This document shows positions 3,731 to 57,095 of a stretch of 64,000 nucleotides of DNA, in pieces. Origin of the DNA: Tolypothrix carrinoi HA7290-LM1 (GTDB taxonomy: Bacteria > Cyanobacteriota > Cyanobacteriia > Cyanobacteriales > Nostocaceae); the NCBI GenBank assembly GCA_019358935.1, contig JAHHIK010000029.1:1-64000 (forward strand). Direction: 5' to 3'. Made by a program: the position numbers and the translations under genes. Positions within the stretch are counted from its first letter, which is position 1; each line of letters begins with the position of its first letter. The notes beneath the pieces are model-generated. The model saw nothing but the letters and a program-made list of their open reading frames with translations. It searched no databases and was not told the origin of the DNA.

Positions 3731-3755
3731 TTTTTAGTGTTTGGATTGTTACAGT

Positions 3756-4772: not shown

Positions 4773-4822
4773 TTTTTTAGAGAAGTTAGTGTTTTCTAAA
4801 AATGATGTAGTAGCAGTAAATT

Positions 4823-5713: not shown

Positions 5714-5798
5714 ATCTACTTCCTCTGTAATGAAAGATGTTTTTAAACCTAAAAAAGTAAATTCAGAAATTTGAGATATATCCGGAGCGGAACCAAGA

Positions 5799-11291: not shown

Positions 11292-11447
11292 TGCTGATAA
11301 ATTTAATTTACAAGCCAAATCATCAAATGAAATCGATTTTATTCAATCTAAGACAGATTGAAAGTTTATTTCTGGAAAAGGGTTCTGTGAATCCATCTGT
11401 TGCATTTATTTTTCACATGGTATAACTCTGCAATTATATTAATTATA

Positions 11448-15200: not shown

Positions 15201-16892
15201 GCAAGTATCTACGTGTTTTTTAAACGTCGGTTCTACTTCATATAGTTCCCGACCCATGTTTGCATACTGTGACCCTTGTCCGGAAAACATGAAAATGACT
15301 GGCTGTTCTCTATGCTCCTGGCATACAGTAAAAATCCGTTCCTGCTCCTGTGTTTCCAAAACGCTTACAGCATCTTTAACACTTTGACACACCAACATTC
15401 GGCGATGGTTAAAAGCTCTACGACCCACTTTTAGAGTATGAGCGACATTGGCTAAATTTATATCTGGATGCTGTTTTAAATACGTAACCAAATTTGCAGT
15501 CGCAGTTTCAAGTGCTGAGCTGGTTTTAGCTGATACTAATATCAATTGCCAAGGTCTAGAGTCATCACAATATTTAATCTCAGGGGCTTCTTCCAGAATC
15601 ACATGGGCATTAGTTCCACCAAAACCTAAGGAACTAACTCCTGCTAGACGGGGAGTATTATTAGCTTTCCACTCAGTAAGTTTAGTATTGACGTAGAAGG
15701 GACTATTTACAAAATCAATTTCAGGATTGGGAGCTTCAAAATTTAAGCTAGGAGGTATTTGTTTATATTTCAATGCTAAAACGGTTTTGATAAGACTCGC
15801 TACACCAGATGCTATATCTAGATGTCCGATGTTTGGTTTTACTGAACCTATAGCGCAGAAGCCATTTCTCTGTGTAAAAGCACGAAAAGCTTTAGTGAGC
15901 GCAGCAATTTCCACTGGATCTCCAGTAGCAGTTCCAGTTCCATGAGTTTCTATATAAGAAATATCATCAGCATTAATTCCAGCATTTGCCAGAGCCTCTA
16001 CAACAACTTCAGCCTGACCATTTACACTAGGTGCTGTATAGCTAACTTTTAAGGAACCGTCATTATTGATTGCTGAACCTTTAATAACTGCATGAATATA
16101 ATCTCTATCTGCAATAGCATCTTTTAATCTTTTTAAGACGACTATTCCAAGTCCACTGCCGAAAATAGTACCCTGTGCTTTAGCATCAAAGGCTCGACAA
16201 TGACCATCAGGAGACAAAATTCCGTCTTCTTGATAGAAGTAACCTGACTTTTGTGGAACTACAATCGTAACCCCACCTGCTAAAGCAATATCACACTCTT
16301 CATCTAGTAGACTTTTGCAGGCTAAATGTACAGCAACTAATGAAGTAGAACAGTAAGTTTGAATACCTACACTTGGCCCTTTTAAATTTAATTTATACGA
16401 AATATTTGTGGTCAAAAAATCTTTATTCAGAGTATAGTTAGTATAAATATTTATTAAATTAACGTTTTCATATATATTGTGAAAAAAGTAACTATTTGTA
16501 CTTATACCAGCGTAAACCCCAATCAAACCTTTATAAGTTTCTGGATCATATCCAGCGTTTTCAAGAGATGACCAGGCACATTCCATGAAGAGGCGATTTT
16601 GGGGGTCCATTACTTCAGCTTCTCTAGGGCTGCAACCAAAGAACCTAGCATCAAAATACTCAATATCTTCTAGTACAGGTGCTGCTTTAACATAATTGGG
16701 ATCCTTTAAAACTTCCTCTTCCAGATTTAAATCTACTAAGTCATGATTGGAGAAAAATGAAATAGACTCAACACCATTTTGAAGATTATGCCAAAAATCA
16801 TCAAGATTTTTGGCACCAGGTAAATGACCGGACATTCCTACTATTGCTATATCTATATTTCCTGTTTGTTCTTGTTTTATTTGGGTAGTCAT
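12264..16892 (-). CDS. Type I PKS KS-AT(malonyl)-KR(likely inactive)-ACP
   Basis: KS TYCSTS/HGTGT/NIGHL; AT GHSIG and HAFH; KR NADPH motif degenerate (PGGLESIE); ACP GGDSL. Confidence 0.93.
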   Translation of the reverse strand: MTTQIKQEQTGNIDIAIVGMSGHLPGAKNLDDFWHNLQNGVESISFFSNHDLVDLNLEEEVLKDPNYVKAAPVLEDIEYFDARFFGCSPREAEVMDPQNRLFMECAWSSLENAGYDPETYKGLIGVYAGISTNSYFFHNIYENVNLINIYTNYTLNKDFLTTNISYKLNLKGPSVGIQTYCSTSLVAVHLACKSLLDEECDIALAGGVTIVVPQKSGYFYQEDGILSPDGHCRAFDAKAQGTIFGSGLGIVVLKRLKDAIADRDYIHAVIKGSAINNDGSLKVSYTAPSVNGQAEVVVEALANAGINADDISYIETHGTGTATGDPVEIAALTKAFRAFTQRNGFCAIGSVKPNIGHLDIASGVASLIKTVLALKYKQIPPSLNFEAPNPEIDFVNSPFYVNTKLTEWKANNTPRLAGVSSLGFGGTNAHVILEEAPEIKYCDDSRPWQLILVSAKTSSALETATANLVTYLKQHPDINLANVAHTLKVGRRAFNHRRMLVCQSVKDAVSVLETQEQERIFTVCQEHREQPVIFMFSGQGSQYANMGRELYEVEPTFKKHVDTCAQILQPHLGLDIRSLLYPSEQDTETASKQLQQTAFTQSALFVTEYALAQLLMSWGIRPEAMIGHSIGEYVAATIAGVFSLEDAVFIVAKRGQLMQQVATGGMLAIRLPEKDVQLLLSAQTLYKNSLQIAVVNSPSSCVVSGTNEAIATLQKQLSSQEIECRLLHTSHAFHSHMMSPILEEFVQLVKTVKLNPPRIRFISNVTGSWITDEQATNPNYWSQHLRQTVRFSDGISQLIQQFKGIFFEVGPGRTLSTLTTQHLDKNTKQQVLTSLRHVKEQQSDVSFLLQILGRLWLDGVEIDWSGFYTHEQRHRLPLPTYPFERQRYWIDAKSPSPSVNRRPTTLDKKQDIADWFYVLSWKRSLLPHSSSDQIKSTEEKWLFFVDDLGVGKKLIDAFKNQGKNVITVQKGEQFSKLSVGIYTINPCKNEDYDTLLKKLISLGQNPEHIAYLWSVSSKVENRQAENYLEFNSLLFLTQSLSKLKISDRLQLWVVSNNIQEVNGNEKLDPEKAAILGLCKVIPQEYPNITCRCIDIALTNHRDAERGQEDCESNIIDKLLDELTSVSSDMVVAYRDRYRWIQTFEPVCLQSVVNEKTPLRKQGVYLFPGGLESIEVVLAEYLTKTFQAQLIFIEDLAFPEKDDFSQWLETHTPDDEVSYKIQQLLALEKLGAKILLMRADTTNYEQMSQSLAYENIGQINGVIYSAGIKRENIFGSIPEICKIELQKLLDSQVCKITVLEEVLQNINLDFCIIFSSLSSILGGFGLGLYSAGNQLIDIFTNRHNQNNSLSWYTINWDKLQLNANQEETILEQVSGSELAITPTEAVEVFKRIFYLRERTQIIISTVDINARKNHTFNLDSLANSKYLNQLDSSPRYCRPNLSNTYIAPKNELEKQITEIWQEVLGIAEVGIYDNFYELGGDSLIATKLVSRLRGRFPVDLPLRDLLSQGMIPRLQAEMIEKLLLEKIEELSEEEVEVFLNNNE
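14221..15300. repeat. Duplicated AT-domain region, copy 1 (copy 2 at ~18922-20002)
   Basis: Long identical stretches at an offset of about 4.7 kb, confined to the AT and post-AT linker. Confidence 0.85.
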
Positions 16893-16937: not shown

Positions 16938-19900
16938 TTAGTTACTTTGCATTTTTATTTGCCTTCTTCTCTGCCCTCGGCTTAGTCTTTGTTCAAAAGC
17001 ATTTTCCTGAGATTCTTCAGGAGTAAAAATCTTTGCCATAGAGCTGATATTCGGACATTCATAAAGTTTAGCAACAGAAATCTTTGAATTAAATCCCTTA
17101 TTTAAGATTGCAATAACTTGAATCCCTATAAGAGAATCACCACCAACTTCAAAAAAATTATCATAGATTCCTATCAGTTCAATTCCAAGAACATCTTGCC
17201 AGATATTGGCAATCTTTTGCTCAATTTCATTTCGAGGAGCAACATAATCATTACTTAGTTCAGGTCGGGGATATTTGGAGTAGGATGGATTGACAGTCTC
17301 TAAAAATTCTAGGACTTGTGTCTCTTTGTAAGAATTGTCCTTTTTGAGTGTATTTAAGAAGTCAGAGGTAGATACTACAACTTGAGGTATTGTATTTCCT
17401 AAAATGCGTAGAAAAGCATCTACACCTTCATTCGGCAATATACCTTGTTGAAGATTTTCTATTCGCAATTGTTGGAGTCGTTGGGGCAATTCTGTGTTCG
17501 CCGCCATTCCAATTTCTTGCCAAGTATCCCAGTTAATACTTGTAGTAAATCTGCCCTGTTTTGAAGCATTACAATGAGCAAAGGCATCAAGAAAAGCATT
17601 TGCTCCACAATAGTCTACCTGTCCAAATTCCCCTAAAATTGAGCTTTTTGATGATGCTAGAATCAAGAAATCTAACTGAATATCTTTGACAATTGCATTA
17701 ATAACTATTGTCCCCTTGACTTTCGCAGCCAGAATACTTTCTGCTTCTGCTTGAGTTTTTCCCTGAATTATACCGCCTCCAGAAACTCCAGCAGCATGGA
17801 TGACACCATTAAGTTGACCAAATTGTTGTTGAGCTTGAGCAACAGCACTTTGCATTTGTTCTATGTTGCTCACATCAGCACTCATCATCAAAACTTCTGC
17901 ACCTAAGTTTTCGAGTTCTTGAACTTTGCGAATTTTGCAGCTAGTGCTATCAGTCTCATCATGAGTAGTGAGCCATTGTTCCCACTCATTTTTTTTTGGC
18001 AAAGCAGAACGTCCTATCAACACTAGTTTTGCTTGTACAGTTCGAGCTAAGTATTCTGCCAAAACAAGTCCGATACCTCCGAGTCCACCTGTAATTAAAT
18101 AGACTCCTTTTTCTTTTAGTCGAGGCTTTTCTATTTTAGCTTTATCGAAGCGCACAGGCTCAAAACTCTGTACCCAACGATTCAAACCTCGATAAGCAAT
18201 TAGCTTTTCAGAATCAGAAACTGTCAGTTCTGCCAGTATTTTTTCTACAAGTGTTTCTTCTTGCCAACTGCCGTGTTCTGGAAGTATAACATCAATACTA
18301 CGACAGTTTATATTTGAATATTCTTGAGATATAACTTTAATTGGTCCAAGTAAAGTGGCTTTCTCCGGACAAAGCATTTCAGTTCCACTTACTGACTGTA
18401 GGTCATTAGAAATAACTGTGATTTCTACTTCATCAGTAGTTTCTTGTCTTCCCAAAGCTTGGGCAATAAATAGGAGACTGTAAAATCCTGTTGTTTGAGC
18501 TTTGTCAACTTGTTCAATTTCTAATTCTTGGTCACTACTAGGTGTGACACTCCATAAATGAACAATCGTTTTTGGCAACTTTTTTTGTTTTAAAAGCTCC
18601 TGCATAAGAAGATCATAATCATGATTTTTTTCTGGATTGATAGTATATTGAGACTCATTTAGTAGGGTAAAGTTTTCACCAACTTTTACAGTAATTATAT
18701 CCTGGTTTTGTGTTTCTAATTGTTTAACCAACTTGCTACCCAAGCCACACTCATCGATAAACACCAAAGTGCAAGATTTTTGAGATGCTAATTCTTGATG
18801 TTCGAGTTGTACAGGAGGTAAAGAAGGTTTCCAAAAAGGGATATAAAACCAGTCGGCTATATCAGGTTTTTTACCCAGTGATATTGAAGTGTGACGATCG
18901 CCTTGTCCTTGCTTGTTAGGTTCAATCCAGTACCTTTGTCGTTCAAAGGGATAAGTCGGCAAAGGTAGACGATGACGCTGCTCGTGGGTATAAAATCCCG
19001 ACCAATCTATTTCTACACCATTAAGCCACAGCCGACCTAATATTTGTAATAAAAAGCTAACATCCGATTGTTGCTCTTTAACATGGCGTAACGAAGTCAA
19101 TACCTGTTGTTTGGTATTTTTATCTAAATGCTGTGTCGTTAATGTGCTTAAAGTTCGCCCTGGTCCTACCTCCAAAAAAATGCCTTCAAACTGCCTTAAC
19201 AGTTGCGATATTCCATTTGAAAATCTTACAGTTTCTCGTAAATGTTGACTCCAGTAATTAGGATTTGTGGCTTGTTCATCCGTAATCCAACTACCAGTTA
19301 CATTAGAAATAAAGCGTATGCGTGGTGGATTCAGTTTGACTGTTTTGATAGCCTCAATAAATGCTGACAATATTGGTTCCATCATTTGGGAATGGAAGGC
19401 ATGAGATGTATGCAACAGTTGACATTCAACTTGTTGAGAGGATAATTGATTTTTTAGTATAGCGATCGCTTCGTCTGTTCCAGAAACAACACAGGACGAT
19501 GGGCTGTTAATAACTGCGATTTGTAGATATTTTTTATACAACGTTTGTGCAGACAGCAGCAACTGCACATCTTTTTCTGGAAGCCTAATTGCCAGCATAC
19601 TTCCTGTGGGTACTTGTTGCATCAGTTGTCCCCTTTTTGCCACAATGAATACGGCATCTTCGAGAGAAAATACACCTGCGATCGTCGCTGCGACATATTC
19701 CCCAATACTATGACCAATCATTGCTTCTGGACGTATCCCCCATGACATCAATAACTGAGCCAAGGCGTACTCTGTAACAAATAATGCGCTTTGGGTGAGG
19801 GCTGTTTGTTGTAGTTGCTTTGAAACAGTTTCAGTATCTTGTTCGTTGGGATAAAGTAGGGAGCGGATATCAAGACCGAGGTGGGGTTGCAAAATCAGAG

Positions 19901-21617
19901 CGCAAGTATCTACGTGTTTTTTAAACGTCGGTTCTACTTCATATAGTTCCCGACCCATGTTTGCATATTGTGACCCTTGTCCTGAAAACATGAAGATGAC
20001 TGGACAATGACTTGGCTCATAGTGGTGACTAAAAATGCGTTGTGGGTCTTTGCCGTTAAGCGATTTCACCGTATCATCTAGGTCGTGGCAAATCATGATG
20101 CGGCGATAGTCAAAAGCTCGACGACCTACTTGTAGGGTGTAAGAGACATCTGGTAGGGGAATATCGGGGTTTTGCTCTAAATAATCACACAGTTGTGCTG
20201 TCGCAGTGTCTAAAGCCGTGCTGGTTTTGGCTGAGAGCAGTAACAATTGCCAAGGACGGGAGGGACTGGAAGCTTCAATCACTGGAGCTTCTTCCAAAAT
20301 AACATGAGCATTAGTCCCGCCAATCGCTAAAGAACTTACACCTGCTCTGCGTGGTGTTCCGTTGGTTTCCCACTCTGATAATTTGGTATTGACGTAAAAG
20401 GGGCTATTGGCAAAGTCTATCTGTGGATTTGGCTCCTGAAAGTGCAAACTAGGAGGTATTTGTTTATGTTTTAGTGCAAGGACTGTTTTTATGAATCCTG
20501 TCACACCTGCTGCTATATTCAGATGCCCGACATTGGTCTTTACTGAACCAATAGCACAAAAGCCTTTTTTATTTGTGCTACCACCAAAAGCTTGTGTGAG
20601 AGCCTTGATTTCAATCGGGTCTCCCAAGATGGTTCCTGTACCGTGTGCTTCTACATAAGTAACAGTCTCAGGTTCGACTTCAGCTAAGGCTAAAGCTTCT
20701 AAAATTACATCCCTTTGACCCTCAATACTAGGGGCTGTATATCCAATCTTTAAAGAACCATCGTTATTAACAGCTGAACCCTTGATTACTGCATGGATAA
20801 AGTCACCATCAGCAATGGCATCCTCTAATCTTTTCAAGACAACTATACCTAAACCATTACCGCCATTAGTTCCTTTAGCTTTTGCATCAAAAGCTCGACA
20901 ATGACCGTCAGGAGAATGAATTCCTCCTTGTTGATAGTGATAACCTATTTTTTGCACCGTTGTAGTGGAAACACCGCCTGCTAAAGCAATATCACTTTCA
21001 CCATTTAGTAAACTTTGGCAGGCTAGGTGGATAGCAACTAATGATGTGGAACAAGCAGTTTGAATATTGATACTTGGTCCTCTCAAGTTCAATTTGTAAG
21101 AAATTTGCGTGGGCAAGAAATCCTTTTCGTTTCTATGCAAAATTTGGTAGCTGTCTACTGATTCCATCAAATCTCGATTGGAATATAAGTTTAAAAGTAG
21201 GTACATATTTGGAGATGCACCAGCGAAAAGACTTATTTGACCGCTATAAGTTTCAGAGTTGTAGCCAGCATTTTCTAAAGCTTCCCAAACACATTCCATG
21301 AAAAGGCGGTGTTGTGGATCTGTAATTTCAGCTTCTCTAGGTGAAAAGCCAAAAAATGAAGCGTCGAATAACTCTATATCTTCTAATACACCGCTTGCCT
21401 TCACGTAATTGGGATCGTTGAGCAATGATGGATCTACCCCACTAGATATTAGTTCCTCATCCGTGAAAAAAGAAATTGACTCTACACCATCCCGCAAGTT
21501 TTGCCAAAAACTATCAATGTTTTTTGAACCAGGAAAACGCCCTGCCATACCAATAATAGCTATTTCATCTTCGCCAATTAAGTTCTCAGATTGATTTAAT
21601 GTATTCATTTCTCTCAT
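16938..21617 (-). CDS. Type I PKS KS-AT(malonyl)-KR-ACP
   Basis: KS TACSTS; AT GHSIG and HAFH; KR TGGLGGIG, AKVKG and YCGAN; ACP GGDSL. Confidence 0.95.
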   Translation of the reverse strand: MREMNTLNQSENLIGEDEIAIIGMAGRFPGSKNIDSFWQNLRDGVESISFFTDEELISSGVDPSLLNDPNYVKASGVLEDIELFDASFFGFSPREAEITDPQHRLFMECVWEALENAGYNSETYSGQISLFAGASPNMYLLLNLYSNRDLMESVDSYQILHRNEKDFLPTQISYKLNLRGPSINIQTACSTSLVAIHLACQSLLNGESDIALAGGVSTTTVQKIGYHYQQGGIHSPDGHCRAFDAKAKGTNGGNGLGIVVLKRLEDAIADGDFIHAVIKGSAVNNDGSLKIGYTAPSIEGQRDVILEALALAEVEPETVTYVEAHGTGTILGDPIEIKALTQAFGGSTNKKGFCAIGSVKTNVGHLNIAAGVTGFIKTVLALKHKQIPPSLHFQEPNPQIDFANSPFYVNTKLSEWETNGTPRRAGVSSLAIGGTNAHVILEEAPVIEASSPSRPWQLLLLSAKTSTALDTATAQLCDYLEQNPDIPLPDVSYTLQVGRRAFDYRRIMICHDLDDTVKSLNGKDPQRIFSHHYEPSHCPVIFMFSGQGSQYANMGRELYEVEPTFKKHVDTCALILQPHLGLDIRSLLYPNEQDTETVSKQLQQTALTQSALFVTEYALAQLLMSWGIRPEAMIGHSIGEYVAATIAGVFSLEDAVFIVAKRGQLMQQVPTGSMLAIRLPEKDVQLLLSAQTLYKKYLQIAVINSPSSCVVSGTDEAIAILKNQLSSQQVECQLLHTSHAFHSQMMEPILSAFIEAIKTVKLNPPRIRFISNVTGSWITDEQATNPNYWSQHLRETVRFSNGISQLLRQFEGIFLEVGPGRTLSTLTTQHLDKNTKQQVLTSLRHVKEQQSDVSFLLQILGRLWLNGVEIDWSGFYTHEQRHRLPLPTYPFERQRYWIEPNKQGQGDRHTSISLGKKPDIADWFYIPFWKPSLPPVQLEHQELASQKSCTLVFIDECGLGSKLVKQLETQNQDIITVKVGENFTLLNESQYTINPEKNHDYDLLMQELLKQKKLPKTIVHLWSVTPSSDQELEIEQVDKAQTTGFYSLLFIAQALGRQETTDEVEITVISNDLQSVSGTEMLCPEKATLLGPIKVISQEYSNINCRSIDVILPEHGSWQEETLVEKILAELTVSDSEKLIAYRGLNRWVQSFEPVRFDKAKIEKPRLKEKGVYLITGGLGGIGLVLAEYLARTVQAKLVLIGRSALPKKNEWEQWLTTHDETDSTSCKIRKVQELENLGAEVLMMSADVSNIEQMQSAVAQAQQQFGQLNGVIHAAGVSGGGIIQGKTQAEAESILAAKVKGTIVINAIVKDIQLDFLILASSKSSILGEFGQVDYCGANAFLDAFAHCNASKQGRFTTSINWDTWQEIGMAANTELPQRLQQLRIENLQQGILPNEGVDAFLRILGNTIPQVVVSTSDFLNTLKKDNSYKETQVLEFLETVNPSYSKYPRPELSNDYVAPRNEIEQKIANIWQDVLGIELIGIYDNFFEVGGDSLIGIQVIAILNKGFNSKISVAKLYECPNISSMAKIFTPEESQENAFEQRLSRGQRRRQIKMQSN
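18922..20002. repeat. Duplicated AT-domain region, copy 2
   Basis: Highly similar to 14221-15300, while the flanking KS and KR regions diverge. Confidence 0.85.
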
Positions 21618-21661: not shown

Positions 21662-23404
21662 TTATATCAAAGATGAAATTAATATTTTGGCAGCTATCTG
21701 GATTTGCTCATTTAAAACTGTTTTAATATCTTCTTCTGTTGTTAACGGATTGGCAATGACTGCACGCATAGCAACTATAGGACTTTCGCTGCCAAACTTG
21801 ATATCTTTTTTTGTCGTTCGCGAAATAAAAGTATGACCAATTTGACGCTGATTTTTTTGTAAACATTCATTAAATATATTGATGATTTGATTATCTATCT
21901 CTGTCAATTTATTTTGAGCAAACTCCCCTCTAAATTGTTTTGGAATATAGCGATAAGTTAACAGATTAGTATCAGGTTCTGCCAGCAATTCAAATTCAGG
22001 CATAGCCGAAATACAAGCAGCCATGTATTGAGTTTTTCGGATTCCTTCATTAATCAAAAACTCATATCCCTTAACTCCAATCAGCTTTAAACCGGCGTGT
22101 AAAAATAAAGCCATGCCTGGTCGAGAACCTTCTAAAGCACGTTTACCTAAATCAAACGACCCCTTACGCATGGTATAGCTAGCCTGTTTTTCGATCGCCC
22201 CAGCCAGATGTGGATCGCGGAAAAAAACCATACCAATACCCATTGGTAGATATAGTTGTTTATGTCCATCAATAGTGACTGAATCAGCTCTTTCTATACC
22301 AGCAAGCTTATGCCGATATTGCTCAGAAAAAATCAGTGGACCACCCCAAGCAGCATCTACATGAAAATGAGCATTAGCTTCCTGTGCAATTTCTGCGATA
22401 TCTGTAAGGGAATCAACTCCACCTGAGTCTGTTGTACCAGCAACTCCCACAATTGCAATAATCAGCAAGTTTTTGGCACGACAATTTATAACAGTTTGGC
22501 GCAGTGCTTGTATATCAACTCGATTATTACAGTCAGTAGGGATTTTGATCAAACTATGGGTACCAATGCCCATTAAATCCGCAGCTTTATCAAAAGAGAA
22601 ATGCATCAAGTCAGAACCAATAATTACTGCTCCTTTATAGCCATAGAAATTTAGAGCAGCTGTTAAACCTTCTTTTTCTACACCAAGAAATCCATCTTTC
22701 GGTTTTAGTAAAGCATTTCGCGCGCACCAAACTGCTGTGATATTTGCCACTGTTCCACCAGAAACCAAGATTCCAAGTGTACTCAAATTGTTTTGAATAT
22801 GTTGAGTGTAAAAACCATCAGAGAAATTATAAATTTGTCGATGCAACATAGCCAAAGCTTCACGTTCACAAAAGCTTAGGGCTTTAGCTGTCTCTATTTT
22901 GACGGCGTTTTGGTTCATTGCCGTCATTAGTTTAGCCAAAGGGCGTACAAAACTAGGAAGTGCCGAGGTCATGTGACCTATAAATCGTGGCGAAGATGTA
23001 TGTATTGAATGAGCAACAACATTGTTGCCTATGTATTTGAGATAGTTCTCAAAATTAGTCGGCTGAACAGGAATTTTACTATCAGAAAATTTTTCTAATA
23101 GTGACTCTAAATCAATGTTGGTATTAGAATCGATTGTGGTTAAAAAATCTTGCGATAAGCTATCAGTTATTTCATCAATTCGTTTCTCAATGGAGGTTGC
23201 TTGATTGCATGAAGTAAACAATTGCATTACTTGTTCTTCTATCTCATTATCTAATGTTTGCTCAGATTCCAAAAAAGAATTTTTGTTTAGCATTTCTTGT
23301 TTGCTTGATGTCATATTGTGTTGGTGACCATATTTTTTTACTTCATTTTTGCAGGAAGAATGTTTTGCCTGCTTTTTTCTAAAATCTTCGATTCTATAGG
23401 TCAT
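21662..23404 (-). CDS. panP: PLP-dependent aspartate 1-decarboxylase (PanP-type, group II decarboxylase); beta-alanine supply
   Basis: HTSSPRFIGHMTSALP, HVDAAWGG and DSVTIDGHKQLY (PLP lysine). Co-located with a beta-Ala-type A domain. Confidence 0.8.
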   Translation of the reverse strand: MTYRIEDFRKKQAKHSSCKNEVKKYGHQHNMTSSKQEMLNKNSFLESEQTLDNEIEEQVMQLFTSCNQATSIEKRIDEITDSLSQDFLTTIDSNTNIDLESLLEKFSDSKIPVQPTNFENYLKYIGNNVVAHSIHTSSPRFIGHMTSALPSFVRPLAKLMTAMNQNAVKIETAKALSFCEREALAMLHRQIYNFSDGFYTQHIQNNLSTLGILVSGGTVANITAVWCARNALLKPKDGFLGVEKEGLTAALNFYGYKGAVIIGSDLMHFSFDKAADLMGIGTHSLIKIPTDCNNRVDIQALRQTVINCRAKNLLIIAIVGVAGTTDSGGVDSLTDIAEIAQEANAHFHVDAAWGGPLIFSEQYRHKLAGIERADSVTIDGHKQLYLPMGIGMVFFRDPHLAGAIEKQASYTMRKGSFDLGKRALEGSRPGMALFLHAGLKLIGVKGYEFLINEGIRKTQYMAACISAMPEFELLAEPDTNLLTYRYIPKQFRGEFAQNKLTEIDNQIINIFNECLQKNQRQIGHTFISRTTKKDIKFGSESPIVAMRAVIANPLTTEEDIKTVLNEQIQIAAKILISSLI

Positions 23405-23449: not shown

Positions 23450-26400
23450 CTAAAAATCTTGTTGCTTTGTTGCTGTTCGGCGCTCTTTCCTAACTTGTTT
23501 TCGCCTCTGTACTGAAGCTGTTCTGCTCTCCGAGTGATGAGCCGGTCGTAAAACAGATGTTTCTTCACTAGATTCCTGACTAAAATATTTAACCAAGTGA
23601 CTTATAGTCGGATATTGAAACATCTCAACCAAGGTGAAATCTCGCTGAAATACTTTTTGCAACTTGCTAGGAACTTGAATTAAGAGCAATGAATTACCAC
23701 CAAGTTCAAAGAAATTGTCATGGATTCCCACTCTTTCTACCTGAAGTAATTCTTGCCAAATAGATGCAATCACTTTTTCAACTTCGGTCTTCGGCGCCAC
23801 ATAGGATACCTCTAATTCTGGTCTTGAAGCCTCTGGTGCAGGTAATGCGTTGCGGTCTATTTTGCCGTTGGGTGTTAGAGGTAGGGCGTTCAGCATTACA
23901 AAGGTTGAGGGTACCATGTATTCAGGTAATCTTTCTTTGATAAACGCTCGTAAGTCGCCGATCGAAAGGGTGGGTTTGTTTGCTATTATTTCGTCAGCCA
24001 GTAGGCGCGTTTTTTCTGCGGGTGTGACTTGGGAATGCAGTGTTCCTTCTTTTTGTTGTGTCGGAACAACATAGGCTACTAGGCGTTTGTCTCCTGGTTG
24101 TTCCTCTCGTGCGACAACGACAGCCTCCACTATTCCCGGATGTTGACTCAAGATAGTTTCTATCTCACTTAACTCGATCCGATATCCCTGGAATTTCACT
24201 TGATGATCTACACGACCCAGAAACTCAATGTTACCGTTGGGTAGATAGTGTGCTAAGTCTCCAGTTTTATACAATTTGTTGTTTGGGTTTGTCCCAAAGG
24301 GATTGGAGATGAAACGCTCTATGGTTAACTCTGGTTGGTTTAAGTAGCCACGCACCACGCCTTCGCCGCCAATGTAGAGTTCACCAGGAATACCAACAGG
24401 TACTGGTTGTAGATGGCGATCAAGAATGTAAATTTCTGTGTTGGCAATGGGGCGTCCGATTGGTATTGTATTGCCGACTTCTTGCAGGGGATAGCTTGTA
24501 GACCAAATAGTCGTCTCGGTGGGACCATACATATTATAAATTTCTGCTGACAGTTGAGTCCGCAACTGTTCTGCTAGAGAAATGGGTAATGCCTCACCAC
24601 CAAGCATCAATTTGCGGAGTGAACCCATCGCACTCAGCGCCTTATTATCCTGAATTAATATTCTTGCTAGAGACGGAGTGCATTGCAGATGTGTCACATT
24701 GTGCCTTGCAATTTGAGCAGGTAGGGAATAGTCAGTGTCATCTTTGTCTGTTTTTTTGTTGCTCAATTCTCTGACTGTATTCAGGTGATGCAAACTAGAC
24801 AACACCGATTCCACATCCACACCAAAATCGATCAGACATGCAACCTCATCCACCCCGATCGCCTTGAGTCGGTTAATCATCCGCAAGCAAGTGCTGGGTG
24901 TGCCTAACAAACTGCTCGTTTCAAAGTAGCGATTAAAGGCGTAATTCAGCAGTTGCTCTTCTTCTTGTGCGGTAAAGTTCTCTGCATTAATATCGTGACC
25001 TAAGCTTTTTCCTAAGTTATTCAACAGACTCAGAGAACTCTTCAAGTACTGGTAGAAAGGTTGCCGCACCTTTTCTCGCACAACATCAATGTTCTCACCC
25101 ACAAAGGTGTGAATCATCAGCGTGACGTGACCTGCTCCCAGTCCATGTCCGTGTTCATGCCAGGATTGGCGATAAATCGCAATTTTTTCCTCTAGTTCCT
25201 CTAGATTTTGATCGAGTAAATGGGTAAGCAAGTTGGCACCAATTTCACCCGCCCGACGAAAAGTTTCCGGACTACCAGCTGCTGTAACCCAAATCGGCAC
25301 TTCCGGCTGAATCGGTTGGGGATGAATCTTCACTTCTACTTCATTGCCGCTACCTGCTGGCAGGGTTATCGATTCTCCGCGCCAAAGTTGGCGGACAGTT
25401 TCGATGTCACGAAACATGATTTGGAAGCGATCGCTATACTTCTCTGGTGCTAAGACAAAATCATTGGCGTGCCAACCGGAAGCAAAGGAGATACCAACCC
25501 TGCCTCGGGAAAGGTTATCAACTACAGACCATTCTTCAACAACTCGGATCGGGTTTTGTAAGGGTAAAACAATACTACCAGCACGAATTTGAATTCGCTC
25601 TGTAATTGTGGCGATCGCTGCACTGACAACGGAGGGATTTGGGTATAGACCGCCAAATGCATGGAAGTGTCGCTCTGGAGTCCAGATTGCCGCAAAGGCG
25701 TGTTTGTCGGCAAACTTAGCACCCTCAAGTAGTAACTGATACTTATCTGTGCCTGCCTCTACCTCGTCACTAGCAAAATAGAAAAGGCTAAATGCCATTT
25801 CTTTATCTGTGATTTTTTGGTCTACTTCAGTAGCAAAAGTAGTAGGTCTTGAATCACCATTAATCACAACTTGAAAACCGCGTGTCAGCGTCCACAGCAA
25901 CTCTAACACTGAGATATCAAAGGAAATGCTGGTAACTGCTAGCCAAGTCCCTGGATGATCGTTGCCAATACTACCGTCCATTCCTGTAAAGAAATTGACA
26001 ACGTTGCGATGACTGACCATCACTCCCTTTGGCTTACCTGTGGAGCCAGAAGTGTAGATTGTATATGCTAAGTTATCCGGCGAGAAGGCTGTTGGGGGAT
26101 TCTGGTCACTTGCGCTTTGAATTATCTGCCAATCTCTATTTAGGCAAACCAGCGAGGCGCTGGAATTTGGAAGTTTTTCCAGCAATTGTTGTTGAGTCAG
26201 CAGTATTGGCACTTGAGCATCTGCCAACATAAAAGTTAGGCGTTCCTGCGGGTATGCTGGGTCTAGCGGTACATAAGCACCACCAGCTTTGAGGATGGCT
26301 AATAGTCCGATGATCATATCGAGCGATCGCTCTACACAAATCCCGACTAATACTTCTGATTTTACTCCCAATGAACGCAAGTAATGCGCCAATTGGTTAG

Positions 26401-27901
26401 CTTTCGTGTTTAGTTCGCAGTAAGTTAACTGCTCATCTTTAAACACCACTGCTACTGCATTAGGTGTGCGTTCTACTTGCGCTTCAAATAATTGATGAAT
26501 GCACTGTTCTTGAGGATACTCAACTTCTGTATCATTCCATTCCAGCAGCAATTGATATTTTTCTTGTGCAGTCAGTAACGACAAATCTCGAAGTTGTTGT
26601 TCGGGATTAGCAACTATACTTTCTAGCAAAGTCTTTAAATGCCTTAATATCCGATTAATCGTCGCACTATCAAAACGACGGGTATCATACGCAATCGACA
26701 GTAATAAATCTGAACTAGGATATACCTGTAGGGTAAGAGGATAATTCGTCTTTTCAAATATCCGAGCTTCACCTATTACCATGCTTTGAGCTAGCTTTTC
26801 TTTAGTATCATCTACTAAATAGTTATTAAAAACTAGAAGACTCTCAAATAGTGGCAAGCCACGAGGAATTTGACTCCATTGTTGAATCTGTATGAGTGGA
26901 CTATACTCGTACTGACGCATTTCCACTTCTTGAATTTGAAGCTTTTTCAACCAAGGTATAAGCAAATCATCAGAAGGGACTTGTACCCGTAGCGGCAATG
27001 TGTTGGCGAAAAGTCCCATCATGGACTCTGCTTCTGCTAATTCAGTCGGTCGGCCTGAAGATGTAGCTCCAAAAACTATATCTAACTCACCACTATAGTG
27101 ACTTAAAAGTATAGCCCAGGCTCCCTTGAGTAGAATATTTAGGGTAAGGTGATACTTTCGCGTCAGGGAATTTAAGGCATCTGTCGTTGTTACCGAGAGT
27201 AAGGTTTGTTGACAATCATGGTCTTCGTCTTCGCTAGAGAAACTACCAGCAGCTTTGTCGATCATTAGTGGTGTCGGTACTGTAAATCCTCTAAGCATCT
27301 CACGCCAGTAAATTTCAGCCTTTGATATATCTTGCTGCTGTAGCCAAGAAATATATTCTTTAAAGGGACGAGGGTATTCCAGATGTAAATCCTGACCTTT
27401 ACAAAAGGCATTATAGAATTCATAAAATTCTTTCCATAGCCATGTTAAAGACCACCCTTCCATCAATATATGGTGATAGCTGAAGACAAATTGATAAGTG
27501 CTATCAGCCACCTGAATTAATGCCAGACGGATGAGTGGAACCTGGGAAAGTGTAAAGCCTTGTTTGCGATCTGCTGCTAAAAAGACTTCTAACTGCTTTT
27601 CTGTTTCCTCCAAAGACATCTGACGCCAGTCTTGAAAATCCCAAGGCAAATCTACTTGTCGATACACCACTTGATATGGCTTATCAAGATTTTCCCAGTA
27701 GAAGGAAGTACGCAAAATCGGATGCCGATCTAAAACTCGCTGCCATGCTTTCTGGAAAGCTGGAACATCAACTTGAGTTTGCAAGGCGTAGCAAAACTGC
27801 TCAAAGTACATCCCCGAATTAGGTGTAACCAGCGTGTGAAAAAGCATACCCTGCTGTAAGGGTGAAAGTTCGTATATATCTTCAATATTATTTTGGTTCA
27901 T
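23450..27901 (-). CDS. NRPS C(DCL-like)-A(Gly, interrupted by a luciferase-like monooxygenase)-PCP
   Basis: IEDIYELSPLQQG N-terminus and HHILMEG. Code is about DILQMGMIWK. LLM insert FSLFYF...WTPERHFHAFGGLYPNPSV...GVDEVACLIDFG lies between A4 and A5. PCP reads GGNSL. Confidence 0.93.
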   Translation of the reverse strand: MNQNNIEDIYELSPLQQGMLFHTLVTPNSGMYFEQFCYALQTQVDVPAFQKAWQRVLDRHPILRTSFYWENLDKPYQVVYRQVDLPWDFQDWRQMSLEETEKQLEVFLAADRKQGFTLSQVPLIRLALIQVADSTYQFVFSYHHILMEGWSLTWLWKEFYEFYNAFCKGQDLHLEYPRPFKEYISWLQQQDISKAEIYWREMLRGFTVPTPLMIDKAAGSFSSEDEDHDCQQTLLSVTTTDALNSLTRKYHLTLNILLKGAWAILLSHYSGELDIVFGATSSGRPTELAEAESMMGLFANTLPLRVQVPSDDLLIPWLKKLQIQEVEMRQYEYSPLIQIQQWSQIPRGLPLFESLLVFNNYLVDDTKEKLAQSMVIGEARIFEKTNYPLTLQVYPSSDLLLSIAYDTRRFDSATINRILRHLKTLLESIVANPEQQLRDLSLLTAQEKYQLLLEWNDTEVEYPQEQCIHQLFEAQVERTPNAVAVVFKDEQLTYCELNTKANQLAHYLRSLGVKSEVLVGICVERSLDMIIGLLAILKAGGAYVPLDPAYPQERLTFMLADAQVPILLTQQQLLEKLPNSSASLVCLNRDWQIIQSASDQNPPTAFSPDNLAYTIYTSGSTGKPKGVMVSHRNVVNFFTGMDGSIGNDHPGTWLAVTSISFDISVLELLWTLTRGFQVVINGDSRPTTFATEVDQKITDKEMAFSLFYFASDEVEAGTDKYQLLLEGAKFADKHAFAAIWTPERHFHAFGGLYPNPSVVSAAIATITERIQIRAGSIVLPLQNPIRVVEEWSVVDNLSRGRVGISFASGWHANDFVLAPEKYSDRFQIMFRDIETVRQLWRGESITLPAGSGNEVEVKIHPQPIQPEVPIWVTAAGSPETFRRAGEIGANLLTHLLDQNLEELEEKIAIYRQSWHEHGHGLGAGHVTLMIHTFVGENIDVVREKVRQPFYQYLKSSLSLLNNLGKSLGHDINAENFTAQEEEQLLNYAFNRYFETSSLLGTPSTCLRMINRLKAIGVDEVACLIDFGVDVESVLSSLHHLNTVRELSNKKTDKDDTDYSLPAQIARHNVTHLQCTPSLARILIQDNKALSAMGSLRKLMLGGEALPISLAEQLRTQLSAEIYNMYGPTETTIWSTSYPLQEVGNTIPIGRPIANTEIYILDRHLQPVPVGIPGELYIGGEGVVRGYLNQPELTIERFISNPFGTNPNNKLYKTGDLAHYLPNGNIEFLGRVDHQVKFQGYRIELSEIETILSQHPGIVEAVVVAREEQPGDKRLVAYVVPTQQKEGTLHSQVTPAEKTRLLADEIIANKPTLSIGDLRAFIKERLPEYMVPSTFVMLNALPLTPNGKIDRNALPAPEASRPELEVSYVAPKTEVEKVIASIWQELLQVERVGIHDNFFELGGNSLLLIQVPSKLQKVFQRDFTLVEMFQYPTISHLVKYFSQESSEETSVLRPAHHSESRTASVQRRKQVRKERRTATKQQDF

Positions 27902-27918: not shown

Positions 27919-30900
27919 TCACTGACCAATCTGAGCCAGCAAGTTACTCAAATTTTCTTGATTTATGTTTGCTGCCGAAAAGTCTGAAGGGGTATACTCT
28001 GCTACTTCTAGAGAGCGACAGTGGGTGATAAGAGACTGGAGTGCTTCGACAAAACTATGAGATAGTTTCTCTATAGTTTCGCGTCGATGCACATTTGTGC
28101 TATAGCCAAATTCCAGTCTTAACTGACCTTCTTCATTAACCCATGCAGTCACGCCTAGCAAATGAGGACTAGTTCCTTTTGTACTGTACATTGCTCCAGT
28201 AGATTCTTCAGTTGGTCTGAGCATAGATTGATCAAATCTTCTACCAAACTGACCAAGGTAGAGAAAAAATACCTCTGCTTGAGGAAATGACCGAATTTTC
28301 TCTGTAAGTGTTGTATCCTCGCTCAGGTAGCGTAGTACTCCATGATCAATGGTTCTACTAGAAATGTCACGAAACTGCTCTTTAACGGCTTTCAATGCAT
28401 CCCCTGGATTCTCAGCCCCCTCTAAATCCAACAGCACAGGATAAAGAGTAGTCAGCCAACCTACTGTCCGTGATACATTCACATTATCTATAGTGGTATT
28501 TGCGTCTCGTGCATCTTCTTCGGTATTAAACAGTAGCCATTTTATGCCTGTCCATTGTTTAAAAGCTTGTACAAGAGCAGTCAGCAGAACTTCTTGTGTA
28601 TTAGTTCGATAAACTGCTAGAACCTCCTGAAGTAATGCCTGAGTTTCTGTTTCGGTTAACGCTACTGAGACACTTTGATCTGATGTTACGGTGTTAATGC
28701 CTCCAGAATAATCGATTGGTAAGTGATAAACCTGTTTGTAACGTTCGTTTAGGCAGGAATTTAGCCTTTTCTGCATCTTTTCAGAGTGAGCGTATTCCTT
28801 TAGTCGTTCAGACCACTGCTTGAAAGAGGTTGTTTTCTCCGGCAGTTGAATGGCTTTACCTTGGTTAAGCTGTTGATAAGCAGTCTCAAGATCCTCTAGT
28901 AAGATTCGCCAAGAGCCGAAATCTACTGCCAAGTGGTGGATGATAATGAGCAAGCGGCTTGACTTGTTGACACCCAGATTAAAAAGCACACCCCGTACAA
29001 TTGGCCCCTCTGACAGGTTCAAGCTAGCTTGTAGTTCCGTGGCGGTTGCTTCCATAGAACATTTTTGAACTTCAGGTGAAAACGCTGATAAATCTGTATA
29101 TATCAAATTCACCTGATTTTCCAAGCCAGTATTTACCTGCTGCCAGCCAGATTCAGAGGGGATAAACCGAAGGCGAAGTGCATCGTGATGTATGAATAAA
29201 TGCAGCCATGCCTGTTCAAACAAAGCTGGATCGAGAACTTGCATTACCTCTACAAAGAATGCCATGTTCCAGTGGTGTGGTTCTGATAAATTCTGTTCAA
29301 AGAACCAGTGCTGGATAGGTGTAAGAGCAAGCGAACCAGTTACTAAACCTTGCTCAGCCTGGACAACTTGCTTTGTACTTGTCACCTCTGCCAGTTCGGC
29401 AATTGTCTGATGTTCAAACAATTGCTGAGGGGCAAGTCGATAACCTGCTTTAGCAGCTCTGGCACTAACTTGAATGCCAAGGACGGAATCTCCCCCTAAC
29501 TCAAAAAAGTTATCGTGAATCCCTACTTGCTCAATACCAAGGAGCTCTTGCCAAATATTGGCAATGGTTTGCTCTACCTCACTTGTAGGAGCAATATAGG
29601 CATTATCTAAATTAGGTCTTAAATAAAGTGAAGCGGAACTGGCTTTTTGTGCAAGTTGAGAACCTTGACTAAATTCAAGTTTAATCCATCTTTTGATACT
29701 AGTTTGTAAATCTACCGTTGATGTTACTACTTGGGTAAATTTATTTAGAGATAAAGCACGTTTAAAAACCTCCAGTCCTTCTTGCCTTGTCATCATCGAA
29801 TCCGCACCTTTGGGTAAGGTTACTGATTCGGAGGATTTTTGAGTAATCCAATCACCATAATTGATACTCTGCCAGGGAACAAGGCTTGTTTGGTTATGTT
29901 TATGTACAAAAGCATCAGTGAATAGGTGCGCTGCTGGATAAGCAGCCATCCCCATTACCCCCAAAATAGATGCTAATGAGGATATTACTACACAAAAATC
30001 AAGCTCTTTTCCTTGTAGGATATTTTCTAAGACAAATAATCCATAGCCTGTTGAGCTTAATTGACTTTCACACTCAGTTTTACTTATCTGTTGAACAGTG
30101 CTAAACAACTTTATCCCTGCTGCATGGATTACACCATGAACGTGACCAAAGCGGTTTGATGCTTGAGTCATTACTGCTTGCATTTGTTCGAGATTAGCAA
30201 CATCGGCGCGGCAAATTAGAACTTCAGCACCCAAGGCTTCTAATGCTTGCACTTTCTGGATTTTGCGACTGATATCATCGTTCTCATCATGAGTTGCCAA
30301 CCATTGAGACCAATCTTGTTTTAAGGGAAAACTGGAACGCCGTGTAAGAATTAGCTTGGCACGCGCTGTTTGGGCTAGATATTCTGCCAGTACCAAGCCA
30401 ACATCTCCTAGACCACCAGCAATTAAGTATACTCCCCCTTCCTTGATGGGAATTGCTTCCTCATCTGGCTCCTGAAGTTGTATTGGTTCAAAAGTTTGCA
30501 CCCATCGGTGCTTTCCACGGTAGGCAACCATGTTCTCTGATGCCTTGTGGGTGAGTTCTGCTAAGAGTTGATCTATCAGTTGATTTTCTTGGGGTGTCCC
30601 TGATTCAGGAATGACTACATCAATATTACGACAGGTGATATTGGGATACTCTTGGGGAATCACCTTACAGATTCCCATGACAGTCGCCTTTTCCGGGCAT
30701 AACTTTTCGTCGCCGTTTACTTCTTGTACATTGTTGGTAACAACTAGAATTTGAATAGTATCGGTAACTTCTTGTCTTCCCAACGCTTGTGCTAGGAAAA
30801 GTAGACTATAAAAACCATTATTTTGACATTCCTCAAAGAACTGATGAGGTAATTCTCCCTCTACGTTGGGGATGAGACTCCAAAAATGGCTGATGGCATT

Positions 30901-33900
30901 AGGGTTTAAATCCAATGAATCAAGTTCTTTCAGCAAAGCATCATAGTCACTACTTGTTTGTGGATTTATTGCGTAAGAGCGATCGCCCAGTTGGCTAAAC
31001 TGCTTTCCAACAGTCACAGTAATGACATCATGCCCCTGTAATTCCAACTGTTTGCCAATTTCTGAACCAATTTTAAGAGTATCAATAAACACTAAATAAC
31101 ATAACTTTTGTGCTGGTTTTGCTGCTATATGCCCAGAGCGTTTCCAGGAGGGGATATAAAACCAGTCAGCAATATCCGGTTTTTTCTGTAATGCTTGCGG
31201 CGATCGCGTTGCCAAATTAGCTTCAGGGTTGGCATCAATCCAGTAACGCTGACGTTCAAAAGGATACGTCGGTAAGGGGATGCGACCGCGTTGTTCATTG
31301 GCATAAAAACCAGACCAATGTACTTCTACCCCTTCCAGCCAAAGGCGACCCAATGTAGTCATTAAAAATGCAACATCTGACTGTTGCTCGTAGGAATGCC
31401 TCAGGGAGGGGAGCATCACCGATTTAGCTCTATCGTCACTTTCTAGACATTGTGATGCGAAACTAATTAATGCTTGACCTGGACCAACCTCTAATAAAAT
31501 CGGATTGTCTTTTTGCCACAACTGTTGCACTCCCGAAGCAAAGCGTACTGCTTGACAGAGGTGCTTAACCCAATAACTGGGATCTGTTGCTTGCTCTACT
31601 GTAATCCAGGTTCCGGTGACGTTAGAAACATAGGGAATTTTCGGGGGTTTAAGGCTAAATGTTTTGACTAAATCGCCAAAGGCTGGTGCGATCGCCTCCA
31701 TCATCACAGAATGAAAAGCATGAGAAGTCTGCAAACGCTTACCGACTAAATTTTGCTCGCTTAATTGTTGTTCCCATTCTTCCACAGCATCTGTGGCACC
31801 TGCAATCACACACAACGATGAACCGTTGATTGCAGACATGGAGATTTTCTCATTCAAGAGGGGCTGTATCTCTTCCTCTGAAAGCGGAACTGCCAGCATT
31901 GCCCCTTCAGGCAACTCTTGAATCATTTGCGCTCTTTTAGCTACCAGGGTTAAAGCATCTTCCAGAGACAAAACCTCGGCTAGAGTTGCTGCTACATATT
32001 CACCGATGCTGTAGCCAATCATCGCCGCAGGACGAATTCCCCACGATATCCACAACTGAGCTAAAGCATATTCAATGACAAATATAGCAGGTTGCGAGAG
32101 AAAGGTTTGATTCAGTAGAGACGTTGCACGCAAAGTTTCTACATCCGCTTGTTCCTCCCCACGACCTAACATTTTTCGCAAATCTAGCCCAGGTGAGAGA
32201 GTATTTTGTTTTTGCTTGCTGCCATTCTCACTGTTTCTATTCGGATACAAAACATCTCGCAAATCCAGACCAAGTTCGGGTTTGAGGAGTTCGCAGCATT
32301 GGTCAACTGAGGCGCGAAATGTTGGCTCAGTTTGGTAAAGCTCAAGAGCCATATCAATGTAGTGAGTTCCCAGTCCAGAGAACATGAAGGCAACAGGGCG
32401 TTGCTTAGTTTTCTGAGTACTGGTGATAACTCGCTTTGGTTCTTGAAGTGCCTTGACAGCATCTTGGATATCTCGGCAGACAACCGTGCGCCGATAGTCG
32501 AAAGCTCTTCGCCCAACCTGCAATGTGTAAGCCGCATCGGCAAGGTTTAAATCGGGATGTTCTCGGAAATAATTAGCTAAATTTGTTGTAGCCGTTTCCA
32601 GCGCTGAACTGGTTTTAGCGGATAGCATCAACAACTGCCAAGGGCGAGAATGTAGAGACGCAGTTGCGGTCTCTACAACCGGGGCTTCTTCGAGAACTAC
32701 ATGGGCATTGGTTCCCCCTAATCCAAAGGAACTAACTCCCGCACGTCGGGGAGTGCCATTACTTTGCCACTCGGCAAGTTTGGTATTGACGTAGAAAGGA
32801 CTGTTGGCAAAGTCAATTTCGGGATTAGGCGAAGAATAGTGTAAGCTCGGAGGTATTTGTTTGTGCTTGAGGGCTAAGACGGTTTTGATTAATCCCGCCA
32901 CACCAGCTGCTGTGTCCAAATGTCCAATGTTGGTTTTGACGGAACCAATGGCGCAGAAGCCTTTCTTTTGGGTACTTGCCCCAAAAGCTTGTGTCAGGGC
33001 GGCAATTTCAATGGGATCTCCTAAAGCTGTTCCTGTTCCGTGAGTCTCAATGTAAGTAATACTCTCAGGCTCTACCTCAGCTACTAATTGGGCTGTTCTA
33101 ATTGCCTTTGCTTGAGTGTCGATGCGGGGTGCGGTATAGCTGACCTTGAATGAACCATCATTATTGATAGCTGAACCTTTGATTACAGCATGAATGCGAT
33201 CGCGATGCAAGAGAGCATCTTCTAATCGCTTTAACACTACAATGCCTACACCCTCGCCCCCCACAGAACCCTGTGCATTAGCATCAAATGCACGGCAGTG
33301 TCCGTCAGGAGACACTATTCCTCCTTCTGTATACAAATATCCAGATTTTCTTTCCGCACTTATGGCAACGCCACCAGCTAAAGCGATATCACATTCACCA
33401 TTCAGCAAGCTTTGGCAAGCTAAGTGAACAGCAACTAATGAAGTTGAGCAGGCAGTTTGCACAGCATAACTTGGACCTTCTAGGTTCAGTTTATAAGAGA
33501 CACGGGTGGTTAAAAAGTCTTTATTAGCGGCTATTGTCAGTTGCTGAGGATCAATAGAATTTACAACATTTTGATTTAGGTAAACATTTAGTAAGTAGCT
33601 GCTTAAACTAGATCCACCATAAACACCAATAGCACCTTTATAATTGTGTGAATCATATCCAGTACTTTCCAGAGCTGACCAAGCACACTCTAGAAAAATC
33701 CGATGTTGCGGATCAGTGATTTCTGCTTCTCTGGGATTAAAGCCAAAGAATGAAGCATCAAATAATTCTGCGTCTTCTAATATACCATGTGCTTTTACAT
33801 AGTTAGGGTCATTTAATATGGATAAACTTATACCTGATGATAATAATTCTTCATCACTGAAAAAAGATATTGATTCTACTCCATTTTGAAGATTTTTCCA

Positions 33901-40589: not shown

Positions 40590-40590
40590 G

Positions 40591-45339: not shown

Positions 45340-45381
45340 AATATTAGTCTTATAATTTATCAATATTTTATTAATAAACAA

Positions 45382-46452: not shown

Positions 46453-46455
46453 ATC

Positions 46456-47640: not shown

Positions 47641-47677
47641 AATACCATTTATGCCACGTAAAATGGCAATTTATATT

Positions 47678-47929: not shown

Positions 47930-47944
47930 TAGTCTTGATTATTC

Positions 47945-48799: not shown

Positions 48800-48869
48800 A
48801 ATTAATCCGGTAAGCGAATATTTTTCCTGATTTTCAGTTAAGCTTTTCCAAATTAAAATTAGCTTAAAC

Positions 48870-54728: not shown

Positions 54729-54792
54729 TATCTTACCTCACTAATTACACATAAACCTATGATTAATAGATTGTCCAAACGACTAATATCAT

Positions 54793-55641: not shown

Positions 55642-55732
55642 TCTTATTTGCCTCTATTAAGAAATTGCTTTTTTCGAGTGATAGCAGCATTTTGTTTCTC
55701 TGCAAAGTTAAGGGTTATCCTCAACTCATGTT

Positions 55733-57082: not shown

Positions 57083-57095
57083 AAGTTTTTACCTA

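Follow-up and report, generated by a model that had tools for sequence, protein, structure and literature searches.

What does a luciferase-like monooxygenase (LLM) do when it is lodged inside a glycine module in the middle of an assembly line: does it cut the chain at that residue, or modify the residue and let the chain pass on? The question is raised by a hybrid NRPS-PKS cluster of Tolypothrix carrinoi HA7290-LM1, which we read in a window of 64,000 nucleotides (the whole stretch analysed; contig JAHHIK010000029.1, positions 1 to 64,000). On the comparisons given below, we consider it reasonably probable that alpha-hydroxy-Gly is retained, without a cap, within one full-length and probably iron-binding lipopeptide-polyketide.

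An intact LLM interrupts a glycine A domain between A4 and A5

The interrupted module comprises the following features.

23450..27901, minus strand: NRPS module C-A(N)-LLM-A(C)-PCP with a basic C-terminal tail, 1483 aa, a chimera
26546..27883, minus strand: C domain, HHxxxEG variant (residues 7-452)
25835..26488, minus strand: N-terminal half of the A domain, A1-A4 (residues 472-689)
24770..25798, minus strand: LLM, TIGR04020 (residues 702-1044)
23852..24727, minus strand: C-terminal half of the A domain, A5-A10, which with the N-terminal half gives the specificity code
23585..23773, minus strand: PCP of the Gly-LLM module (residues 1377-1439)

A domain profile search placed a Bac_luciferase match at residues 707-1018 of the 1483-aa ORF, and TIGR04020 matched residues 704-1044 (model positions 1-341) with 541.5 bits against a curated cut-off of 244.45. 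Motif A3 lies at residue 616, A4 at 661 and A5 at 1123. Because the LLM falls between the latter two, the insert site is A4-A5; the insert is 343 aa long, or ~370 aa with its linkers. The specificity code of the split A domain is DILQMGMIW(K) and that of the uninterrupted Gly module in the same cluster is DILQLGMIW(K), both of which we take to be Gly-type codes. Thus, the family score, the motif positions and the code DILQMGMIWK all bear out the preliminary description of this DNA, in which an LLM interrupts, at A4-A5, an A domain coded for Gly. The protein has no TE after the PCP and ends in its basic tail.

The best PDB sequence match of the LLM is the PuwE monooxygenase 6KET (E 5.6e-132), and the LLM is 55% identical to this PKS-acting domain. 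In an AlphaFold model of the module (mean pLDDT 83.8, built on 38 sequences), the LLM part superimposes on 6KET with TM 0.93 and rmsd 2.3, as do the two halves of the A domain on the intact A domain 4D56 with TM 0.83; the model therefore keeps both folds. Against six orthologs the LLM has a dN/dS of 0.12-0.22, similar to the A halves, which rules out a dead remnant and indicates an intact enzyme under purifying selection. Among the ORFs of the window that were scanned, none was recognised as a flavin reductase, and FMNH2 would presumably be supplied by a host reductase.

The module sits in the middle of a hybrid assembly line

The line starts with FAAL-ACP-C-A(MT)-PCP, a glycosyltransferase (GT), an Asp/Asn hydroxylase-like gene and KS-AT-MT-KR-ACP. 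It continues with four ACP-bound-extender genes, Thr(E), Gly and Thr modules, KS-AT-KR-ACP-E and the Gly-LLM module. The end consists of PanP, KS-AT-KR-ACP, KS-AT-KR(degenerate)-ACP, a methyltransferase (MT), C-A(beta-Ala type)-PCP-TE, P450, SDR, a sucrase/ferredoxin-like gene and MATE.

34119..63599, minus strand: variable upstream part with FAAL-ACP-C-A(MT)-PCP, GT, Asp/Asn hydroxylase-like gene, PKS with MT, and Thr(E), Gly and Thr modules
45382..48799, minus strand: FkbH, acyl-CoA dehydrogenase, ACP and 3-hydroxyacyl-CoA dehydrogenase; predicted hydroxymalonyl-ACP supply
27919..33999, minus strand: upstream PKS KS-AT(GYS, ZmaA-like, predicted hydroxymalonyl-ACP)-KR(atypical)-ACP-E
21662..23404, minus strand: PanP-type PLP aspartate decarboxylase, TIGR03799 above cut-off; predicted beta-Ala supply
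16938..21617, minus strand: first PKS after the module, KS-AT-KR-ACP; predicted to accept the Gly-derived unit
12264..16892, minus strand: second downstream PKS, KR nucleotide-binding motif degenerate; predicted beta-keto product
11448..12218, minus strand: stand-alone class I methyltransferase
7194..11318, minus strand: terminal C-A(beta-Ala type)-PCP-TE, whose nucleophile motif GHCYG contains Cys
2363..7175, minus strand: P450, SDR, sucrase/ferredoxin-like and MATE genes past the TE

The domain reading of the downstream ORFs agrees with the earlier claim that two PKS modules and a beta-Ala/TE module follow the LLM. The Cys nucleophile of the terminal TE is shared with its best PDB match, AB3403. 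Both upstream ATs carry a GYS motif and the one AT searched matches ZmaA-AT best in the PDB, for which reason hydroxymalonyl units are predicted (PMC4207774, available text).

The PKS at 27919-33999 ends in an E domain, and in its KR the usual Lys is missing and His replaces Asn near the catalytic Tyr; the same atypical residues occur in its counterpart in a congeneric cluster (G407), and the C domain after the PKS is of the HHxxxEG variant. The first A domain (window 57096-63599) combines an unusual code, DVEDLGCI.., with an A8-A9 methyltransferase, and the relatives read have Lys-, Asp-, Gly-type or other codes at this slot. Near the contig end, window 532-840 holds a 102-aa ORF that by eye resembles a type II thioesterase and is possibly broken.

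Homologs point to alpha-hydroxylation of tethered glycine

Of 7998 scored candidates, 7641 pass E 1e-100, and the best 120 of these 7641 were inspected. In all 120 the LLM lies within an A domain of Gly-type code. After the PCP, these best 120 of 7641 have a TE (8), a C domain in cis (3), an E domain in cis (1), a basic tail (46), an acidic tail (47), an unclear end (2) or a truncation (13), where tails were classed by a charge heuristic and the TE may in some cases be encoded as a separate gene. The mid-line Gly-LLM architecture is thus common: the mid-line site noted earlier is real, but with a TE directly after the module in only 8 of the best 120 it is not exceptional.

In 24 of the best 120 of 7641, an FkbM-type O-methyltransferase is inserted at A8-A9 of the same Gly A domain, and none of these 24 is directly followed by a TE. 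Since an O-methyltransferase would find a hydroxyl on Gly only if the LLM had installed it, this pairing supports hydroxylation by the LLM. Most of the 24 inserts contain a DVGxN motif, which is described for Ser/Thr O-methylating inserts (PMC8341866, available text). Alpha-hydroxylation of the tethered Gly is the most likely LLM reaction.

MupA and the PuwE-type alpha-hydroxylases belong to the same TIGR04020 family and have the same fold as the LLM. However, MupA acts on a beta-ketoacyl-ACP, as opposed to the peptidyl-Gly-PCP predicted here, and a beta-hydroxy thioester is not converted; its reductase comes from outside its cluster (PMC10952193, available text). Given this need of MupA for a beta-keto thioester, it remains a prediction that a plain glycyl thioester is hydroxylated. 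This requirement, the 55% identity to the PuwE domain and the pairing of a free LLM with a KR-degenerate PKS in three sister clusters (below) would suit an LLM that oxidises a different position, for example the alpha-carbon of a neighbouring PKS beta-ketoacyl unit, and leaves Gly unmodified. We regard this as improbable, given that A-embedded LLMs form their own group, separate from PKS-type and free LLMs (100/98 support), that the Gly-type code is invariant in the best 120 of 7641, and that TE-terminated members have no downstream PKS.

In the LLM tree, which is a quick tree with many open forks, the LLM of this module falls in a group of support 100 with two MT-bearing modules, one TE-terminated module and one module continued in cis. 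LLM phylogeny is uninformative as a predictor of cutting or keeping, as these three kinds of module are interleaved.

Other arrangements were observed among the homologs. The same genome holds a second Gly-LLM module (G000:C55:3-41911; L009, L011) in which a C domain continues in cis, with two more Gly modules; this cluster also encodes a PKS-type LLM-KR protein and a FAAL. P0115 reads C-A(Gly, LLM)-PCP-E, with an epimerase-like domain after the Gly-LLM. The Gly-LLM is the first NRPS module of a FAAL-started line in 25 of the best 120 of 7641 (e.g. P0015, P0016), and 10 of these 25 contain an FkbM methyltransferase. A Cyanosarcina radialis record (L007 / L037-L038) encodes a small line of FAAL-C-A, C-A(Ala) and C-A(Gly, LLM, FkbM MT), which continues with hydroxymalonyl genes, KS-AT-ACP-reductase and a lantibiotic-dehydratase-like gene.

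Precedents include proposed cutting as well as keeping

In MtaG (myxothiazol) and MelG (melithiazol), a monooxygenase is inserted in a Gly A domain at A4-A5, and the cleavage to a terminal amide stands in print as a proposal (PMC11411415, PMC10204066). FshJ (fischerazole) is likewise a terminal amide module, whose mechanism is called speculative (PMC13548996). ZmaL of zwittermicin is a separate protein with a proposed cut at Ala, after which the remainder is extended by NRPS modules (PMC4207774). Within the available text of these papers, the MtaG/MelG and zwittermicin precedents had been stated correctly in the preliminary description, and both are proposals.

These precedents would suit a split on the line, similar to zwittermicin: hydroxy-Gly would break on the PCP and free a lipopeptide amide, and a glyoxylyl thioester would prime the PKS-PKS-beta-Ala/TE part to give a second product. 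It counts against retention that the characterised A4-A5 cases found (MtaG, MelG and FshJ) are all proposed to cleave. In favour of a split, the clade of the LLM studied here, which is strongly supported, also contains P0005, a TE-terminated LLM. These systems share a Gly-specific A domain with an inserted flavin monooxygenase with our module, and MtaG and MelG also the A4-A5 position. In the parts of the papers available, however, MtaG, MelG and FshJ are read as C-A(MOx)-T-TE, with the TE directly after and at the end of the line, whereas the Gly-LLM module lies mid-line before a KS and is not a last module with a TE. The zwittermicin line is likewise a hybrid with hydroxymalonyl-ACP machinery, and the GYS motif occurs in ZmaA-AT too. 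Unlike the stand-alone ZmaL at Ala, the LLM here is embedded and Gly-coded, and the tail behind it would also work in LLM-less clusters.

The closest working analogy is SolF of solanimycin from Dickeya solani, where a flavin monooxygenase is embedded in a mid-line Gly module and alpha-hydroxy-Gly is kept and extended (PMC10204066, available text). Solanimycin B holds the alpha-hydroxy-Gly, while in solanimycin A the hydroxylation is skipped and plain Gly remains. The mid-line Gly module and the embedded flavin monooxygenase are found here as well; in SolF, as far as its description is available, the insert is at A8-A9 and an NRPS module is next, as compared with A4-A5 and a PKS here. In the literature searched, neither a characterised A4-A5 monooxygenase module in mid-line position nor a paper on NRPS methoxyglycine came to light, nor did a described product of this cluster family; subscription papers and supplements, outside that coverage, may bear on this. 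Nothing pertinent was found in PMC13347036 or bioRxiv 2026.09.06.749771.

Sister clusters extend intact chains with the same tail

The tail TE is present in 124 of 389 family genomes (about one third), and an orthologous A-LLM (at least 89% identity) in 7 of 389, including this one, with three candidates scored per genome. As the natural comparison, we read 24 tail clusters without an A-LLM ortholog, picked by closeness and length of contig. In 8 of the 24, plain modules occupy the same slot, between an ortholog of the upstream KS-AT-KR-ACP-E protein (78-88% identical) and PanP plus the same PKSs. The slot contains Gly (G407, G522), Ala (G653, G578, G621, G589), Thr (G523) or Ser(E)+Thr (G615). 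In G407, which is of the same genus, a plain C-A(Gly)-PCP fills the slot of an otherwise matching line; the upstream PKS is 88% identical, the downstream PKSs 83% and 84%, and the terminal NRPS 87%. Because plain-slot sisters have the same tail, this tail would extend intact amide chains, and because the modules ahead of it vary, it appears to serve as an end piece that is attached to intact chains of varying make-up. The split described above is at odds with this handling of intact chains.

An embedded LLM was found in none of the 24 LLM-less tail clusters, in the stretch read, and a free LLM in three (G760, G501 and G736). The free LLMs (L091-L092, L097 and L099-L100, respectively) are preceded by a malonyl PKS with degenerate KR and followed by a plain Gly module, and they perhaps substitute for hydroxymalonyl loading. 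A role as Gly hydroxylases in trans is disfavoured by their separate grouping, by their position after KR-degenerate PKSs and by the NDKD that is retained in the next KS.

A different insertion was observed in L090:5708-10924 (plus strand; G730:C12:34708-39924), a 1739-aa ORF reading C-A-decarboxylase-A-PCP. Here a PanP-type PLP decarboxylase interrupts a beta-Ala-type A domain between A5 and A6, which places a putative substrate-making enzyme within the A domain. We know of no other A domain interrupted by a PanP-type decarboxylase.

The acceptor ketosynthase is remodelled at its gate and keeps the amide-accepting motif

The changes in the acceptor KS are concentrated in one stretch.

21126..21233, minus strand: KS residues 129-164, with gate loop ASPN and NEKD motif; 7 of 15 lineage-specific changes

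The KSs after a Gly-LLM module compared here are those of this cluster, G402, G403 and G404; those of L002 and L008 were left out. The four nest among 13 KSs that follow plain modules (95/92 support), and because they form one clade, a single evolutionary event is indicated. Among 38 KSs parsed, 30 have NDKD, the four post-Gly-LLM KSs have NEKD, and four post-PKS KSs have lost the motif and carry NSQD or NVQD instead. We take N(D/E)KD to be the mark of hybrid KSs that accept an amide. The gate loop is ASPN in the KS of this cluster versus VAAS in most plain-slot KSs. Residues 129-164 hold 7 of the 15 lineage-specific changes (7 of 14 clean ones), compared with 0/7, 1/5 and 3/15 in control clades, and random placement of the 14 sites gives P 0.003-0.006. 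This stretch presumably takes in the published gatekeeping loop positions 1-4. The KS positions are described in PMC11321453 (available text).

This pattern fits a chain in which the amide is kept and the alpha-carbon is changed. The remodelled gate could equally reflect a change to glyoxylyl as substrate, and to that extent it lends something to the split; the retained N(D/E)KD argues against it, and a glyoxylyl-primed KS was not met in the literature searched for other questions. We judge the split unlikely. The altered KS and the A-domain-like dN/dS of the LLM also speak against hydroxylation being partial or dispensable, with most product carrying plain Gly, like solanimycin A beside B. 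Such an outcome would find support in the plain-Gly versions of the cluster and in the partly skipped solanimycin step (PMC10204066, available text), and we give it the slimmest chance of the alternatives.

The module is a chimera with the probable scar of a methyltransferase

The C domain is 88-93% identical to that of four plain Gly/Ala/Thr slot modules (67% and 28% to two others), and the PCP is 76-80% and the tail 51-63% identical to plain-slot modules, with 76-79% for the PCP against those four. The A halves and the LLM are closest to P0004-P0008 (LLM 73-86% identical), whose C domains are only 17-29% identical to the C domain here. As C and PCP match the plain slot and A-LLM matches other pathways, the sequences indicate a swap of an A-domain cassette.

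A second trace lies in the C-terminal half of the A domain.

23987..24064, minus strand: ~26 additional residues in the loop between A8 and A9, probably left behind by the loss of an FkbM-type O-methyltransferase

The A8-A9 loop has 45 residues, compared with 17-22 in 43 of 61 MT-less homologs; no intact O-methyltransferase is present between A8 and A9, where ~26 leader-like residues remain. The loop aligns with the MT-insert leader of the nearest MT-bearing relatives (p 0.0005-0.003 versus shuffles) for four of five references, which were picked after inspection. Against 12 MT leaders it scores 22.2, where 11 of 12 real leaders score 8-28, and it ranks top of 16 long MT-less loops (p 0.002). 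The signal is weaker in G402 and G405 and is not significant in G403 and G404. Thus, the loop is a probable leftover of a deleted O-methyltransferase. The apparent deletion of this cap favours the split, and a hemiaminal without its methyl cap lacks the obvious stabiliser, which weighs against retention.

Could the hemiaminal instead persist and receive a cap in trans, from the stand-alone methyltransferase or from the glycosyltransferase, as had been suggested earlier? Both genes lie within the cluster, the ancestral cassette was apparently O-methyl-capped, and the MT is present in all four LLM-bearing tails read (own, G402, G403, G404). However, 14 of 20 LLM-less clusters likewise have an MT in this position, and the MT here is 87% identical to that of the LLM-less G523 versus 57-60% to those of LLM-bearing relatives. 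The MT thus does not track the LLM and belongs to the tail. The GT is absent from the LLM-bearing G403 and G405, read from the FAAL gene onward, which rejects it as a general cap. Neither gene looks like a dedicated cap, the proposal of capping loses its footing, and we hold this outcome to be very unlikely.

Retention is the favoured reading

Of the two outcomes originally offered, the retained hydroxy-Gly is favoured and the two-metabolite split is not, since sister tails run on an intact aminoacyl chain without an LLM and the next KS keeps its amide-accepting motif. In the favoured pathway, the LLM would alpha-hydroxylate PCP-bound peptidyl-glycine, the whole chain with its uncapped N-acyl hemiaminal would pass intact to the next KS, and it would continue through the PKS-PKS-beta-Ala/TE tail to a single product. 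The A-LLM cassette may have entered the slot by recombination from an alpha-methoxy-Gly pathway and then lost its O-methyltransferase, with the KS adapting to the new alpha-substituent. The free hemiaminal might undergo ring closure by a neighbouring hydroxyl, or form a labile joint that may break after release.

Close homologs mostly lack a TE directly after the module (best 120 of 7641), yet the A4-A5 cases found in print are terminal and their mechanism is still a proposal. In related cyanobacteria, almost identical clusters occur in versions that have the LLM and versions that lack it, which amounts to a natural controlled experiment, in which keeping or cutting is directly testable. The module combines three linked evolutionary steps, namely an A-domain cassette swap, loss of a methyltransferase and a change of the KS gate, which are useful for hybrid NRPS-PKS engineering. 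More speculatively, and with a rather low probability, the hydroxylating Gly cassette and the cap deletion may have put a break point into the stable linker of a widespread, siderophore-like Nostocaceae family, either by shedding a lipopeptide amide and passing glyoxylyl to a re-tooled KS, or by making a self-cleaving amphiphile that frees its chelating head.

The cluster is linked to probable iron uptake genes

Just outside the window, at C29 64649-67414, lies a TonB receptor gene with a binding-protein gene beside it. This receptor shares 76% identity with the one encoded inside the G403 cluster, while the next two in the genome reach at most 49%, and nine clusters with enough upstream sequence read have a receptor within or next to them. 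A linked TonB-dependent receptor and binding protein, used to recognise siderophore clusters, are therefore present, and the product is probably an iron-binding lipopeptide-polyketide. The A-domain codes of this cluster predict no beta-OH-Asp, catechol or hydroxamate residue. A Fur-box pattern search gave two matches, both inside genes and not above chance, as 8 of 100 shuffles reach as many; a scan of upstream intergenic sequence gave short, loose matches only.

Cyanochelin-type clusters similarly have a FAAL start, an AMIN-domain TonB receptor with a binding protein, and a sucrase/ferredoxin-like gene. C-TauD/Asp modules, a beta-hydroxy-Asp signature of siderophores, occur in 9 of the 24 LLM-less tail clusters; several sisters thus resemble cyanochelin-type clusters in this respect, while the cluster here has no Asp module. 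In the available text on cyanochelin C, a decarboxylase, P450 and monooxygenase are not described, unlike in this cluster. For the widespread Cys-TE tail, which comes after a KR-degenerate PKS and is followed by P450 and SDR genes, one putative idea is a Dieckmann-type closure to a pyridone-like chelator.
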